Assembly: GCA_963817955.1 (NCBI GenBank)
Contig: CAWFQK010000001.1
Coordinates: 256,001-320,000 of the forward strand
Length of the DNA: 64,000 bases
DNA from: an uncultured Gemmatimonadaceae bacterium
Lineage (GTDB): Bacteria; Gemmatimonadota; Gemmatimonadetes; Gemmatimonadales; Gemmatimonadaceae
Direction: 5' to 3'
Below are positions 36,189 to 40,961 of this stretch, piece by piece. Position numbers and translations under genes: made by a program. Positions within the stretch are counted from its first letter, which is position 1; the number at the start of each line of letters is the position of its first letter. Below the pieces are notes generated by a model that did not search any database, was not told the DNA's origin, and saw only the letters and a program-made list of their open reading frames with translations.

Positions 36189-37385
36189 TTAGCGGCGACG
36201 AGCCGTGATCAGGACGGCGATCTCGTCCGGTCGTGCGTTGATGAAATCGAGACGGACACGACCGTCAGCTGTCGTGGTCACGGTCGCCGGTATGGAGCTG
36301 TTCGTGAGCAACCAGCCTTCGGGCAGGACGACGGCATTCGCCGGCCGGCCGAAGCTTCGGTCCCAGACAAGCTCATCGCCCACGAGCGTGTAGCGGACGC
36401 TGTCGCTGTACGTCTCGAACATGCGTAGCCGCACGGACTCGCCGGTTCTGACAGTAGGAAAGTGGAAGACGACGGCTTCGGTCGCCGAGGTCACCGCCGG
36501 CAGCTGCACGCCGCCGCGGCGGATCTCGTCTCCCCTGAGAATCTCCCAGCGGAGCTCCTCACCTGTGTCCAGGTTACGGGCCGACGGCCGCGACACGGTA
36601 CTTCCCGCACGTACTTCATTGACATACGTCGAGACGCCGACGCGAGACTCCGTATAGTCATGATACAGATTGAACGCGTGCGTCTCTGGCTGCTGCAGGA
36701 AATAGACGATCTTGCGATTCTGGTGCGCGCGTTCGTCGAGTCGCGACGAGACGCTCGATGCAGCCGCCGCCCTACGCGCTGGACGAGCGCGGAGCAGGAG
36801 TGGCGCTTCAGCCGGCGTGGCGTTCCAGAAGCTGATGGCAATGCGCCCGTCGGTCTCCAACAACACCTGCGACGGATAGTTGCAGAAGGTCAGCTCATAT
36901 CCGGCCGGCAATACCACCGCATTGCGTTTGATGCCGAGCGGTCGCGAAAAGATGACCGTGTCGCCGCGCACGAAGTAGCTCGTCGCATCTTCGTAGGTCT
37001 TGTCGATGAGGACGCGCGCCTCCCCGCCATTCGCTGGAACCGGATGCGCGAGCGTGACGCGAATGTAGGTCTGTGTCGTGTCGGGATTGCGTACACCGCC
37101 CGCGCGAGCGACGCCACTCCCGACGACGTCGAAGGCCAGCGGTTGGCCGGAAGCGCGATCGCTGACATGTTCGTCGCTGGCGACGCTGCCCTTGCGGATC
37201 GGATTGAAATAATACGCGGCGCCCGGCGTAGTCGCCGTCACTTCATAAATGATGCGAAACTTCGCCGAGCCCGGCGCGAGCAATTCGTAGCGCGTGTACG
37301 CGTCGGATTCGGTTTGGACCGGCGCCTGCGCACGCGATGAACGCGCGACCGCCAGCGCCGCGATCACGGTGAACAGGCGCCGCAT
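36189..37385 (-). CDS. Secreted hypothetical protein with two homologous beta-rich domains
   Basis: Signal MRRLFTVIAALAVARSSRAQ, duplicated NAVVLPxGY/W and DGRI/V motifs. Confidence 0.8.
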   Translation of the reverse strand: MRRLFTVIAALAVARSSRAQAPVQTESDAYTRYELLAPGSAKFRIIYEVTATTPGAAYYFNPIRKGSVASDEHVSDRASGQPLAFDVVGSGVARAGGVRNPDTTQTYIRVTLAHPVPANGGEARVLIDKTYEDATSYFVRGDTVIFSRPLGIKRNAVVLPAGYELTFCNYPSQVLLETDGRIAISFWNATPAEAPLLLRARPARRAAAASSVSSRLDERAHQNRKIVYFLQQPETHAFNLYHDYTESRVGVSTYVNEVRAGSTVSRPSARNLDTGEELRWEILRGDEIRRGGVQLPAVTSATEAVVFHFPTVRTGESVRLRMFETYSDSVRYTLVGDELVWDRSFGRPANAVVLPEGWLLTNSSIPATVTTTADGRVRLDFINARPDEIAVLITARRR

Positions 37386-37390
37386 GACGT

Positions 37391-37793
37391 CTACTTCTTC
37401 CCGGCGGTCACCGAAAAACTGCTGCGAATCTTCGCCAGCTCGTTGCGCTGCTCGGGATTCGTTTCCATGATGTCGCCGAGGAGCGTCGCCATCATCTCGT
37501 CGTCGATCACGACGGGCTCGGGCGAGAAGCGCTTGCCGCCGCCCATATGGCGGCCTGGATCGAGCCGGAGCTCGTGCTTCAGCACGACGTCGTCGGTGCC
37601 AAGCCTGTACGCGCACGGCCGCGAACTTCTTGCCGGCCTTCTCCATGTAATGCACGCGCACGCCATCCACGTCCGCAGGTACGACGGGCAGCGAATGTAC
37701 CGATCCATCGGTGCCCTCGAACACCGTAGCACCTGGCGAGAGTTTCGGGAAATTCCGTTCGAAACCGCCATGGTACACCAAGCAATGATGCAT
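37391..37793 (-). pseudogene. Hypothetical protein split by a 1-nt insertion near 37604 (pseudogene or sequencing error)
   Basis: MHHCLVY...FAAVRVQ in one frame continues as LGTDDVVLKHEL...TAGKK in another. Removing one G gives a 133-aa ORF with GAGG RBS. Confidence 0.7.
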
Positions 37794-37895
37794 CGTCACC
37801 TCGGGTGGGGCGTGGGACTGCGGTGGGCGGCAAAAGGTAAGGTCCCTGCCGCGCAGGCGCTATCCTGGCCGGTGGCCGAGAACTGACAGATGACC

Positions 37896-37931
37896 AAAAA
37901 AAAGGCCCCCGCCGGTCGGAACGGGGACCTT
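37896..37931 (-). terminator. Strong intrinsic terminator
   Basis: AAGGTCCCCG...CGGGGGCCTT followed by a T8 run. Confidence 0.88.
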
Positions 37932-38076
37932 CAAACAACTCTGCTACACAGGGGAAGACGAACAGGAGTCAGACGCCACGCATGATTTCCCACCCACCCC
38001 TCATGACGGGAACACCCAAGCTCCTGCCGTCTAGACCGATACCACCGAGAACTTTTGGGGGGCACCCGGTGGCACG
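37896..38076 (-). ncRNA. Candidate ~180-nt structured non-coding RNA or attenuator (family not recognised)
   Basis: No credible CDS. Two hand-folded hairpins plus a terminator, with a -10-like hexamer and tandem repeat upstream. Confidence 0.5.
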
Positions 38077-38109
38077 TGAGAAACTATGGTCTGGTGGCGT
38101 TTCAGTGGG

Positions 38110-38129
38110 TAAAGATCCCACAAAGATCA
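38110..38129 (-). promoter_or_regulatory. Tandem direct repeat, candidate OmpR/KdpE-family binding site
   Basis: GATCTTT-gtgg-GATCTTT with 11-bp period, right after the kinase stop codon. Confidence 0.55.
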
Positions 38130-38139
38130 AACCACGCGA

Positions 38140-39693
38140 CTACACCGTTTGCTCGAATGCTTCGGGCCGCAACTCCGTCGCTGGCAATCGCAAAGCAAAG
38201 ATGCTCCCGCCGCCTGGACGCGGCTCGTACTCCACCGTTCCGCCCTGGATCTCGGCGAGCGTCTTCGCGATGGATAATCCCAGCCCGGCGCGTCCGGCAT
38301 CCGGCGCCATTCCGCGCGCGCGATAGAACGGTTCGAAGATGCGCGGAACGTCCCGCTCATCCACCCCCGAACCGCTGTCGGCGACGGTGAACACCAGCTG
38401 ATCACCGTCGCGCCGCGCGCCGAGCTCGATGGGCTGGCTCGGCCCTGAATAGCGAACCGCGTTCTCCAGCAGATTGCAGAGCACGCGCAGTGACTGAGAA
38501 AAATCAAAACGTCCTACGAGCGCGGGGCTGTCGAGGTCGATGACCGTGCGCAGCAGGCGGTCGCCAAACAGGCCGCGCGTCTGCCGCACGGCCGCGCCGA
38601 TGAGATCCTCCGCCGTATTCAACTCCGGCGTCGCCGAAAAGCCCCCGCCTTTGAGGCGCGACAGATCGAGCAGATCGTTCACCAGCCGCGTGAGCCGGTC
38701 CGCCTGTTCGTCGATGGCCGCCGCGGCCTCGTTGCCCTGCAGGGCCTCACTCTCCGCCAAAGCCTTGATCGTGGTCAGCGGCGTACGCAGATCGTGCGAC
38801 ACCGACGCAAGCACGATATCCTTGAGCCGATCAGCCTCTCGCAGGGCTTCGGCGTGTGCCGCTTCCGCCACCAATCGGACACGATCGACGGCGAGGGCCG
38901 CGTAGTAGGTGATGGCGTCGACAAAGCGCCGCTGAGCGGCATCGAGCCGTATCGGAGCACGATTCGCCAGCCGCATGACCCCCACCACTCGACCTTGCAC
39001 GGTGAGCGGCATGAGAATTGTCTGAATTCCCTCGGCAGGGGTGTTCGGCGCCGCACGAGGTTCGTCCCGGGCCAACCGAAAGACCTCGCCGCCTGGCTGG
39101 ACCCAGGTGGGCCCGGTATGGTCGATGGCCACCTGGAGCGCCGCGGTCTCGGTCGGCCCGAGGGGGCCCCCGCCAGCTCGCTGCGGTCGGAATCCGTGCT
39201 CCGCGTCCCAGGCGACGATCGCGCACTCGTCCACACGAAGTGTCGCCTGAATCACGTCCGCAATGCTCGCCAGCGCGTCTTCCGCGCGCCCGGCGCTCAG
39301 GGTCTCCGAGCCAAGCCGAGCGAGCGACGATACCTCGATTGTGCGCCGCTCCGCCGCTTCTGCTTCTGCCTGCGCCCGCGCGAGGAGATGCGTCGCGACG
39401 AGTGCCGTGAGGAGAAACGACGCCAGCGTGATGAAATCGAGCGGTTTGCCGTCACCGATCGCGTAGTACGGCGGCTGAAAGTAGTAATCAATGAGGAGTA
39501 CGCCGGCGCAGGCCAGCGGCATCGCCAACATTCGTCCGCCCGACGTGCTCGCGCCGAGTACGAGCAGCAGGTATACGAGAACGACGTGCACCTGGTCGAT
39601 CTCGCCGCGCACCTGTACCATCGTTACGGTGCACAGGATCATCAACGTAATCCACGCCACCCAGACCAGGATGTCGCGGCGGCGGAGCGACAT
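38140..39693 (-). CDS. KdpD-like sensor kinase, short form (DUF4118 4-TM, GAF, HisKA, HATPase)
   Basis: LVYLLLV, DYYFQPPY, SVSHDLRTPL, NLLENAVRY, GLGLSI. No N-terminal KdpD or Usp domain. Confidence 0.88.
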   Translation of the reverse strand: MSLRRRDILVWVAWITLMILCTVTMVQVRGEIDQVHVVLVYLLLVLGASTSGGRMLAMPLACAGVLLIDYYFQPPYYAIGDGKPLDFITLASFLLTALVATHLLARAQAEAEAAERRTIEVSSLARLGSETLSAGRAEDALASIADVIQATLRVDECAIVAWDAEHGFRPQRAGGGPLGPTETAALQVAIDHTGPTWVQPGGEVFRLARDEPRAAPNTPAEGIQTILMPLTVQGRVVGVMRLANRAPIRLDAAQRRFVDAITYYAALAVDRVRLVAEAAHAEALREADRLKDIVLASVSHDLRTPLTTIKALAESEALQGNEAAAAIDEQADRLTRLVNDLLDLSRLKGGGFSATPELNTAEDLIGAAVRQTRGLFGDRLLRTVIDLDSPALVGRFDFSQSLRVLCNLLENAVRYSGPSQPIELGARRDGDQLVFTVADSGSGVDERDVPRIFEPFYRARGMAPDAGRAGLGLSIAKTLAEIQGGTVEYEPRPGGGSIFALRLPATELRPEAFEQTV

Positions 39694-39695
39694 GG

Positions 39696-40439
39696 TCAGC
39701 GCGGCAACTCGGCGCGATAACCGACGCCCGGTTCAGTGATGATGAGTTGCGGCGCGGCGGGATCGACCTCGATCTTCCGGCGCAGATTGGTGATATGCAC
39801 GCGCAAGTATTGTTGCGGACTGCCGAATTCCCGACCCCACACGGCATCGAAGATTTGCTGGTGCGTGAGCGTACGACCCGCGGCCGCGAGCAGGGTGGAG
39901 AGAATCTGCCATTCGATCGGCGTCAGGTGAAACGGCGTGCCGTCGCGCGACACTTTCCGCGCGACCGTATCGATCACCAGCCCACCTACCACAACAGGGG
40001 CCGAACTCGCGGCCGCCGCGGCGACGGTCTTGGCGCGACGGATCTGCGCCTTGGCGCGCGCCGCGAGCTCGAGGACACTGAATGGCTTGGTCACGTAATC
40101 GTCGGCGCCCGCGTTGAGCAGATCGACTTTCTCGTGCTCGGAGTGGCGCGCCGACAGCACGATGATCGGCACGGCCGAGCGCTGTCGAATCTCGCGGCAG
40201 ACGTCCACGCCCGCCATGTCGGGCAGTCCAAGATCGAGCACAACGAGATCGGGGCGCCCGGTGGTTGCCGCGTCGACACCGTCACTTCCATTCGCCGCTT
40301 CATCGACGCGCACGGTCACGTTTCGCAGCGCATCACGCACCGCGCGACGAATCTGCGGTTCGTCGTCGATCACCAAGACCAGATCGGCGTCAGGCATTTC
40401 AGCGGCAACCGGTGGAGTGGGTTCGTGAAATATGACCAT
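39696..40439 (-). CDS. kdpE: KdpE-like OmpR-family response regulator
   Basis: VIDDEPQIRR, LDLGLPD, LSAR, GADDYVTKPF, YLRVHITNLRRKIE, TEPGVGYR. Start uncertain (40397, 40439 or 40460). Confidence 0.88.
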   Translation of the reverse strand: MVIFHEPTPPVAAEMPDADLVLVIDDEPQIRRAVRDALRNVTVRVDEAANGSDGVDAATTGRPDLVVLDLGLPDMAGVDVCREIRQRSAVPIIVLSARHSEHEKVDLLNAGADDYVTKPFSVLELAARAKAQIRRAKTVAAAAASSAPVVVGGLVIDTVARKVSRDGTPFHLTPIEWQILSTLLAAAGRTLTHQQIFDAVWGREFGSPQQYLRVHITNLRRKIEVDPAAPQLIITEPGVGYRAELPR

Positions 40440-40535
40440 GCTATCAAGCTCATTGGTCACAGTTGCGCCCGCATCCGCGTGTATAATTCTTAGCGCGCGC
40501 GGAGCAGCGGCACAGAATCTGTCCTGTGTGTCGGC

Positions 40536-40961
40536 ATGCGCACGCATCCTGTCCTCATCCTTACGGTCGCCACGGTCGCCGCTGCCGCGCTCGCTGCGTG
40601 CGATCAGGCGACATCGCCTACTATCGCCGGCCTCGGCGGTCAGACGGCTGCGTCAGGCACTATCGGTAACGCTGTTCCTCTGATCATATCGCCCACCGTC
40701 GTTCAGCTCGGCGTGGGGGCATCCTTTCAATTCACGACCAACGCACCTGTCGGGCAACAGGGACAGGTGCAGTGGAATTCGCTGCAGTCCACCGTTGCAA
40801 CCGTATCGCCGTCGGGACTGGTGAACGCGGTCGCAGCGGGAACCGCTGTCATCGTCGCCCGGTTTTCGTTCGACACAACGAACGTCGCCGTGGCAACAGT
40901 CATCGTGTCGGGTACGACGACGGGCGGCACAACGAGCAGCAGCACCCCAGGAGTCCCGTAA
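40536..40961 (+). CDS. Lipoprotein with bacterial Ig-like (Big_2) domain
   Basis: LAA-C lipobox, VQWNS...VATVSPSGLVNAVAAGTAVI. Confidence 0.85.
   Translation: MRTHPVLILTVATVAAAALAACDQATSPTIAGLGGQTAASGTIGNAVPLIISPTVVQLGVGASFQFTTNAPVGQQGQVQWNSLQSTVATVSPSGLVNAVAAGTAVIVARFSFDTTNVAVATVIVSGTTTGGTTSSSTPGVP

Follow-up and report, generated by a model that had tools for sequence, protein, structure and literature searches.

A conserved structured RNA behind a KdpDE-like two-component pair in an uncultured genus of Gemmatimonadaceae, predicted to be under the control of a KdpE-family regulator

The 64,000-nucleotide stretch of DNA analysed here (the window; positions 256,001 to 320,000 of contig CAWFQK010000001.1, assembly GCA_963817955.1) comes from an uncultured Gemmatimonadaceae bacterium and carries on its minus strand, directly behind the genes of a KdpE-like response regulator (RR1) and a short KdpD-like histidine kinase (HK1), a previously undescribed structured RNA, which is without an Rfam family and belongs to an uncultured soil genus of the Gemmatimonadaceae. 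The explanation that we prefer, with a probability of about 0.62, is that the RNA is the product of a separate small RNA (sRNA) gene, which would be silent until a KdpE-family regulator (most likely RR1) binds in front of it, and that the RNA would act via its loops. This explanation is built on conservation, covarying structure, conservation of the promoter box, the type of that box and synteny, from which we infer the transcription start, the activation, the signal and the action in trans. The elements of the locus, in the direction of transcription, are:

39696..40547, minus strand: RR1, response regulator of the OmpR/PhoB family, nearest to KdpE (Pfam Response_reg and Trans_reg_C)
38140..39693, minus strand: HK1, short KdpD-like histidine kinase of 517 amino acids (Pfam DUF4118, GAF, HisKA and HATPase_c)
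38128-38122 and 38117-38111, minus strand: GATCTTT repeats with an 11-bp period (GATCTTT-N4-GATCTTT, 38128-38111)
38105..38128, minus strand: predicted KdpE-type operator, with half-sites CTTTGT (38125-38120) and CTTTAC (38114-38109) 11 bp apart and a conserved CCCAC after them
38081..38086, minus strand: probable -10 hexamer TAGTTT (consensus TAnnTT), recognized by its conservation in alignments
38041..38073, minus strand: hairpin 1, with the invariant C-rich loop UGCCCCCCAAA(A/C)GU(U/C) at 38064-38050, which in this genome is TGCCCCCCAAAAGTT
37957..38031, minus strand: hairpin 2, with an invariant outer stem CAGGAG/CUCCUG, covarying middle helices and an inner CATGA/TCATG helix
38000-37985 with its leading G, minus strand: invariant G-rich apex of hairpin 2, GGGUGGGUGGGAAAU
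37956-37951, minus strand: TTCCCC linker, 3' of hairpin 2
37893..37932, minus strand: intrinsic terminator of this genome's copy, with a 13-pair stem (37932-37901) and T8 (37903-37896)
37803..37809, minus strand: CCCACCC in the C-rich 5' region of c8, complementary to the G-rich apex, a candidate target
37793-37791, minus strand: ATG of c8, the next gene

A first-pass annotation of this DNA had described the tandem repeat with its 11-bp period, the two hairpins with their C-rich and G-rich loops and the CATGA/TCATG helix, and the linker and T8 terminator, and each of these is present on the minus strand where it was placed, the linker and terminator in this genome's copy. The CATAGT proposed as a -10 element is likewise there (38088-38083), but the hexamer conserved among 28 orthologous copies lies 2 nt further downstream (TAGTTT, 38086-38081). 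A tiny open reading frame (ORF; MRGGWEIMRGV) was also correctly read, but in other species either the start or the stop is missing; because it is not kept, and because linker lengths differ between copies by non-multiples of three, the alignment indicates that the stretch is an RNA and not a peptide gene.

Conservation and covariation of the RNA

A DNA search (E < 1e-8) of 60 related genomes, 30 of the same genus and 30 of other genera, locates the RNA in 28 of the 31 genomes of one Gemmatimonadaceae genus (27 of 30 besides the source genome), and nothing convincing was found in the 30 genomes of other genera. Another 35 copies were found on metagenome contigs by a pattern placed on other invariant parts, all 35 being confirmed by a covariance model, so that the larger alignment comprises 63 copies (28 from genomes and 35 from metagenomes) with 46 distinct sequences. 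The public contigs that match the RNA bear record titles of metagenome-assembled genomes of a Gemmatimonadaceae, Gemmatimonadales or Gemmatimonadetes bacterium.

The stems are variable and the loops constant in the 28-copy alignment (loop 1 is UGCCCCCCAAACGUC, and the hairpin 2 apex is as listed above), the loop of hairpin 1 being invariant or nearly so across all 28. The RNAalifold structure of these copies contains 33 pairs, of which 13 are changed on both sides; with the CATGA/TCATG helix written in, it contains 34 pairs, 94.8% of the 881 cells are paired, and 15 pairs are changed on both sides, a proportion reached by 0 of 500 shuffles and to be compared with 2-6 pairs in slid controls. 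Both hairpins contribute: 5 of the 8 pairs of hairpin 1 and 10 of the 26 pairs of hairpin 2 are changed on both sides, with 96.1% of the cells of hairpin 2 paired. In the 63-copy alignment the model structure has 33 pairs, with 97.7% of cells paired and 14 compensatory pairs (0 of 500 shuffles as high; slid controls, 1-6 pairs). Many U-G pairs are compatible with the minus strand alone.

Rfam 15 gives no match at the gathering score anywhere in the window, and a search of 37700-38250 with E values up to 10 yields no more than six, which score 13-17 bits and of which five fall on the stretch of terminator and linker; the best sub-threshold match (17 bits, E 0.76) lies on the terminator. No Rfam family is matched, the stems covary, and the repeat is kept in the 28 genome and 35 metagenome copies, in agreement with what had been predicted from the single sequence. 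From the comparison of these copies, the element is very probably a real, conserved, structured RNA.

Promoter and operator box

The -10 element has the consensus TAnnTT, with T1, A2 and T6 invariant and T5 nearly so in both the 28-copy and the 63-copy alignment, and TAnnTT-type elements occur also at the promoters of kdp and c8. The TTTACC sequence in the proximal half-site is 21 nt upstream of TAGTTT, too far for a -35 element, and a consensus promoter scan found no sigma-70-type site here. The conserved upstream block is (A/G/C)TCTT(T/A)(G/A)(T/C)G-N2-ATCTT(T/A)(A/G)(C/T)CCAC, a box that is kept in all of the genome and metagenome copies and is joined in several lineages by a third in-phase half-site; this pattern fits a block that acts as an array of regulator half-sites, not as a sigma-factor element. 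Assuming a start near 38075, the half-sites are at about -50 to -45 and -39 to -34. Together with its conservation, this arrangement suggests that the RNA is probably transcribed from its own regulator-dependent promoter.

The operator of KdpE in Escherichia coli, as the relevant passages of PMC3264566 define it, consists of two 6-bp T-rich direct repeats (TTTATA and TTTACA) that have a 5-bp spacer between them; according to the same passages the first two T of the repeats are invariant across genera, and the contacts are made by R193, R200 and T215. TTTGTG-N5-TTTACC at 38124-38108 conforms to this two-repeat, 5-bp-spacer definition of PMC3264566 and is kept in the 63 copies, and the comparison supports the earlier suggestion of a repeat such as regulators of the KdpE family bind. 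A loose form of the repeat, TCTTW-N6-TCTTW, has 4 matches in the genome, about the number expected from base composition by a hand estimate; scanning the 4.53-Mb genome with a weight matrix of the 24-bp box gives no site of 14 bits or more except this one, which scores 38.9. Judged by its sequence type, the box is fairly likely to be served by a regulator of the KdpE family.

The RR1/HK1 pair and its synteny with the RNA

The ORF of RR1 as listed encodes 283 amino acids, but the probable start (ATG 40397-40395), according to a reading of the sequence and alignment to the paralog RR2, reduces it to 234. Its best NCBIfam model is that of KdpE (NF007820, 221.4 bits, under the cut-off of 325), and its best solved relatives are the E. 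coli KdpE structures 4KNY and 4KFC (E about 1e-55). Alignment to 4KNY places in RR1 all three of the DNA-contact residues that passages of PMC3264566 report for E. coli KdpE (R193, R200 and T215). RR1 is 60% identical to RR2, and the recognition helix is nearly equal. HK1 is without the N-terminal KdpD sensor domain, and matches the KdpD model NF007793 only at positions 398-884 (171.8 bits, versus a cut-off of 1123).

An HK1 ortholog (62-82% identity) is found upstream of the RNA on the same strand in 28 of 28 loci, and an RR1 ortholog (80-92%) in 26, contig ends cutting off the remaining two. The kinase alignment ends 45-190 nt ahead of the RNA in 16 of the loci, and a gap of about 3.3 kb separates the two in the other 12; 11 of the gapped loci contain one ORF family in the gap, a count that is approximate since ORFs were called by a crude rule of length and GC3 (GC content at third codon positions), and the representative that was scanned has Pkinase and TPR domains. 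The proteins of this interposed family are about 1050-1095 amino acids long, with a fragment of 135 in one locus (loci L035-L037, L045, L051 and L053-L058). The box and -10 element accompany the RNA in all 63 copies, with a spacing that stays constant even in the loci with the 3.3-kb gap, and the sequence from the stop codon to the box is not conserved.

The three genomes of the genus in which a model search found no RNA (G004, G027 and G028) possess only kinase paralogs 46-48% identical to HK1, unlike G009 and G013, in which there are kinase matches of 80-81%. This co-absence of the RNA and the HK1 ortholog may be taken as supporting evidence only, as related genomes are not independent. The pair had been called an orphan, which holds in that no K+ transporter gene is adjacent but not in that it is one of three KdpDE-like pairs in the genome. 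That an sRNA is the output of the pair is supported as regards a conserved structured RNA always downstream of the orthologous pair, with RR1 as one of three candidate regulators.

Three KdpDE-like loci in one genome

The source genome (G000) has three kinases with a DUF4118 domain, each preceded by a KdpE-like regulator and followed by T-rich half-sites at 11-bp spacing and then by a target:

Pair on contig C2: the target is a 29-codon kdpF-like ORF, followed by kdpA
Pair on contig C4: the target is an APC permease with a single solved relative, the K+ importer KimA (E 1e-63)
Pair in the window: the target is the RNA

The RNA therefore occupies the slot that is held by K+ transporter genes behind the other two pairs, and the operator type stands ahead of the K+ uptake genes kdpF-kdpA and the kimA-like gene in this genome. 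The motif TTT[AG][CT]-N6-TTT[AG][CT] occurs 15 times on both strands of the 4.53 Mb, six of these occurrences being within the three KdpDE-like loci. A kdp query matched 17 of the 31 genus genomes searched, and the promoters carry two in-phase pairs of half-sites and then a gTAGCnTT element; the distal of these pairs almost equals the box of the RNA in G006 and G021, and in G004 and G028 similar arrays precede permease paralogs behind KdpD-like kinases.

Several further features of the two paralogous loci were observed. The kdpA gene (contig C2, 26237-27835) matches the Pfam KdpA family in at least three frames with internal TGA stops, and could be either a broken gene or the result of indel errors in assembly. 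Also on contig C2 (31055-31110, plus strand) are two more KdpE-type half-site pairs, which face away from the kdp-linked regulator gene and toward about 0.9 kb with no called ORF; in G004 and G028, too, such inverted boxes are found next to an antisense ORF that follows KdpD-like kinases, and the half-sites on C2 may mark another KdpE target. On contig C4 (L108:4012-8290) the pair, with a short KdpD, is followed by four TCTT(T/G) half-sites and then the KimA-like K+ importer, whose closest relatives are 53-60% identical, in other families of the order versus 32-37% in the genus, suggesting that the kimA-like locus on C4 was acquired. Orthologs of the kimA-like promoter in the genus were sought with no DNA match, true orthologs being in other families, where they have no two-component pair upstream. 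One of these, in G039 (60% identical), has a cyclic di-AMP (c-di-AMP) riboswitch (RF00379, 84.2 bits) upstream (L111:1342-1483); the same transporter is therefore riboswitch-controlled in one family, and in this genome it follows a two-component pair. Apart from these loci, a stretch of about 50 nt on contig C5 (L216:750-800; about 158051-158099) recurs in G000 at 16 or more places with 86-94% identity, and another short stretch (L216, about 265-320) is repeated in G000, G009 and G001; both look like small dispersed repeats.

Proposed mechanism and alternatives

The RNA would be about 125 nt long if it ends with hairpin 2, and up to about 180 nt if, as in this genome, the T8 terminator is included, and would be transcribed from a promoter that has a TAnnTT -10 element, no usable -35 element, and two or three KdpE-type half-sites at 11-bp spacing immediately upstream of the -35 position and overlapping it. 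Because the -35 element is absent and KdpE-type half-sites are found instead, the promoter is predicted to be silent until a phosphorylated KdpE-family regulator binds, most likely RR1, which is encoded directly upstream with HK1. The signal that the kinase reports is presumably K+ or osmotic status, as it would be with the two paralogs for kdpFABC and the KimA-like importer, and the two invariant single-stranded loops, C-rich in hairpin 1 and G-rich in hairpin 2, would most likely pair with other RNAs.

A number of observations weigh against this proposal. The sole evidence from an RNA library is an 80-nt contig of depth 2.1 from a soil metatranscriptome, lying on 37960-38014 (hairpin 2); it carries no start, end or strand, may derive from DNA in the library or from a relative, and would fit transcription of hairpin 2 in some relative; the run that it comes from shares a small part of the sequence words. 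The length of ~180 nt first put forward holds for this genome and is less certain elsewhere, as a canonical terminator is found at most 75 nt past hairpin 2 in only 6 of the 28 loci; in 2 more a T-run directly follows hairpin 2, which makes 8 in all. The fold of the single sequence is unremarkable (-73.2 kcal/mol, z = -0.73), 44 of 200 shuffles folding equally well. The half-sites of the RNA are 22 nt from the -10 element, versus 10-11 nt at the kdp and kimA-like promoters, which puts them one helical turn further away but still in phase. The scan of the genome for the tandem box, although it found the box here, found no second copy by the weight matrix, and no box was seen upstream of the RR1 gene. 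Genome-wide complements of 10-11 nt to the loops are about as numerous as a rough, hand-estimated chance expectation. The RNA-less assemblies G004, G027 and G028 are 87, 99 and 74% complete, and synteny and co-absence in one genus may reflect inheritance as a block or gaps in assembly. Finally, either of the other two KdpE-like regulators could act on the box.

This last point leads to an alternative in which the RNA and box are the same but are served by the KdpE linked to kdpFABC or by the paralog at the kimA-like locus, so that the RNA would be a further member of a K+-limitation regulon and the adjacent pair would have another output or none. Cross-regulation by the kdp-linked KdpE is a serious rival because the three recognition helices are very alike; in addition, the half-site type is common to all three loci, and the resemblance of the distal kdp pair to the RNA's box in G006 and G021 points the same way. 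We nevertheless judge it unlikely, since the RNA always adjoins RR1/HK1 and never the kdp or kimA-like loci, and is not found in the three genus genomes without an RR1/HK1 ortholog (although the kdp query matches two of these, G027 and G028, and permease paralogs are present in all three), and since RR1/HK1 has no other visible target. The adjacent pair is favoured because of synteny, and the odds that RR1 in particular acts on the box, judged from these sequence comparisons, are about even.

Control by RR1 of a separate sRNA gene must also be set against two explanations that deny the RNA a gene of its own. If it were a cis-acting 5' leader, whether attenuator or riboswitch, of the downstream gene, it would fit those loci, the window included, in which c8 is the next gene and begins some 215-300 nt from the predicted start of the RNA, without anything intervening, as well as G034 and G100, in which a box and a G-apex hairpin come directly before a same-strand ORF. 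This is quite improbable, because the ORF next to the RNA is on the opposite strand in 17 of the 28 loci (approximate, by the same crude ORF rule), and because the downstream neighbours vary from locus to locus; c8 itself, found in 18 loci on the same strand, starts 216-2544 nt away with its own conserved -10-like element, and in this genome a strong terminator intervenes. The particular form offered by the first-pass annotation, an attenuator whose G-rich loop sequesters the CCCC arm of the terminator, is contradicted by the alignment as well, in which the TTCCCC linker, the CCCC arm and the terminator sequence are not conserved. Less probable still is a structured 3' untranslated region of the messenger RNA of the kinase (or of the Ser/Thr kinase), possibly processed to a stable fragment, with some other role for the repeat: the RNA does lie 54 nt past the HK1 stop codon on the same strand, and the scan did find no sigma-70 consensus promoter, but the constant spacing of box, TAnnTT and RNA whatever the upstream gene, and the lack of conservation between stop codon and box, argue otherwise.

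Candidate targets and function of the loops

Perfect complements of 7 nt or more to the apex are found in 10 of 18 c8 upstream regions (10 nt in G003 and G022; counted by eye), just upstream of the c8 ribosome-binding site. The duplex energies are slightly better than those of dinucleotide shuffles (z averages -0.87, and p is below 0.06 for 5 of the 18), the margin being small because c8 upstream regions are C-rich. A gene encoding a LytTR-type regulator has an 11-nt complement upstream, of which a 7-mer is kept in 7 of 11 orthologous loci (mean z -0.91), a case picked post hoc. Both c8 and the LytTR gene are weak leads as predicted targets. A glyoxalase-like gene with a 12-nt perfect complement upstream was rejected, the complement not being conserved in 14 orthologous loci. 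For the C-rich loop, no target at a ribosome-binding site was found.

A kissing contact between the C-rich and G-rich loops, which had been suggested, finds no support, with about 5 pairs at most (by eye) between two loops that are both invariant. The apex, GGGG-U-GGG-U-GGG, consists of three G-tracts with single-nucleotide loops, and only three tracts are conserved. The RNA might itself be K+-sensitive if a fourth tract, supplied by a second RNA molecule or a target, completed with the apex a G-quadruplex dependent on K+, and K+ would then set both the amount and the active shape of a regulator RNA. The evidence does not favour this idea, which we regard as the least probable of those considered here: minimum free energy folding with G-quadruplexes allowed predicts no intramolecular one in any of the 28 copies, and the conserved G-tracts are three.

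Range beyond the genus

Searched with the covariance model, 147 genomes from 76 other genera of the family gave no match (with stricter filters and only 22 candidates scored per genome; the unpublished genome G061 is counted among the negatives), and nor, with filters off, did the surroundings of the orthologs in other genera of c1, a gene neighbouring c8 (see below). Among 45 pattern matches in the genome collection, 20 were dismissed as chance matches in other phyla. A Desulfobacterales contig (L097:401-1771) has five copies of the pattern, four of them at 261-nt spacing, in a tandem array that is unrelated to the RNA (model score 16 bits).

Two genomes of two other genera, G034 and G100, have kinases 59-60% identical to HK1, and downstream of each kinase gene (L294:1200-1470 in G034; L295 in G100) come a box of KdpE type, a -10-like element TAnnnn, and a long hairpin whose G-rich apex contains GGUGGGUG, here directly ahead of a same-strand ORF. 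A DNA search of 40 further genomes found no relatives of the G034 variant. These hairpins may be diverged relatives of the RNA that act as leaders, the homology being an impression; if so, the RNA element may have begun as a leader.

The downstream genes c8 and c1

Downstream of the RNA, the window contains an ORF of 536 amino acids (36189-37799) that resembles c8 (about 135 amino acids) and c1 (about 405 amino acids, with an N-terminal signal-like segment) run together. The two are separate in other genomes, and residues 66-140 here are an Arg-rich stretch without counterpart, suggesting a frameshift in c8. Neither c8 nor c1 matches a Pfam family, and Atlas returns only hypothetical proteins for them. 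A block upstream of c8 (GATAGGATGGCG ... CCGTAGCTTC) is conserved in the window (37810-37880) and 17 other loci, and is followed by the C-rich 5' region.

Novelty and comparison with known systems

We know of no described small RNA from Gemmatimonadota, and one loose full-text literature search for small RNAs of Gemmatimonadetes, a weak check, returned none that was relevant among the papers listed. A KdpE-dependent sRNA was not found among the papers listed by a full-text literature search, judged mostly by titles and abstracts, with passages of PMC8552747. What appears to be new is the RNA family without an Rfam match, its occurrence in an uncultured Gemmatimonadaceae lineage, and a KdpDE paralog with an RNA as its only visible target; that two-component systems drive sRNA genes is, by analogy with the systems below, already known. 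The RNA would be a well-supported first case of an sRNA in Gemmatimonadota, from an uncultured lineage of soil and rhizosphere. The KdpDE-type system is usually tied to a single transporter operon. If the proposal is true, the system has here been duplicated and rewired, with one copy driving a non-coding RNA, and signalling of K+ or osmotic status has been extended to post-transcriptional control. The three parallel layouts (kdpFABC, kimA-like and RNA) and the 24-bp operator make the hypothesis directly testable, and the covariance model and 46 distinct sequences suffice to propose a new RNA family.

Among response-regulator-driven sRNAs, whose action is post-transcriptional, RsmY/Z (GacS/GacA), Qrr (LuxO), OmrA/B and MicF (OmpR) and MgrR (PhoP) are known, and in the GacA and LuxO systems sRNAs are the main output. 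The predicted sRNA likewise seems to be the main output of its system, but it has no relation in sequence or structure to any of these (no Rfam match), and its regulator is of the KdpE branch. RsaE and RoxS are sRNAs with C-rich loops, in which the C-run is a seed that pairs with G-rich ribosome-binding regions. The RNA resembles them in the invariant C-run of a hairpin loop, and differs in that it has no Rfam match to those families and possesses an equally invariant G-rich loop besides. It would share with the c-di-AMP riboswitches of K+ importers a control of K+ homeostasis at the level of RNA, but gives no match to their family and in most loci is no leader. Its nearest counterpart on the side of the regulator is the KdpD/KdpE-kdpFABC system of E. 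coli, with which it has in common a regulator closest to KdpE with the three contact residues kept, and two T-rich 6-bp repeats with a 5-bp spacer, as the passages of PMC3264566 describe them. Unlike that system, it has behind the operator a non-coding RNA and not a transporter, half-sites of the sequences CTTTGT and CTTTAC, a kinase without the N-terminal sensor domain, and two proteins that both fall under the NCBIfam equivalog cut-offs.

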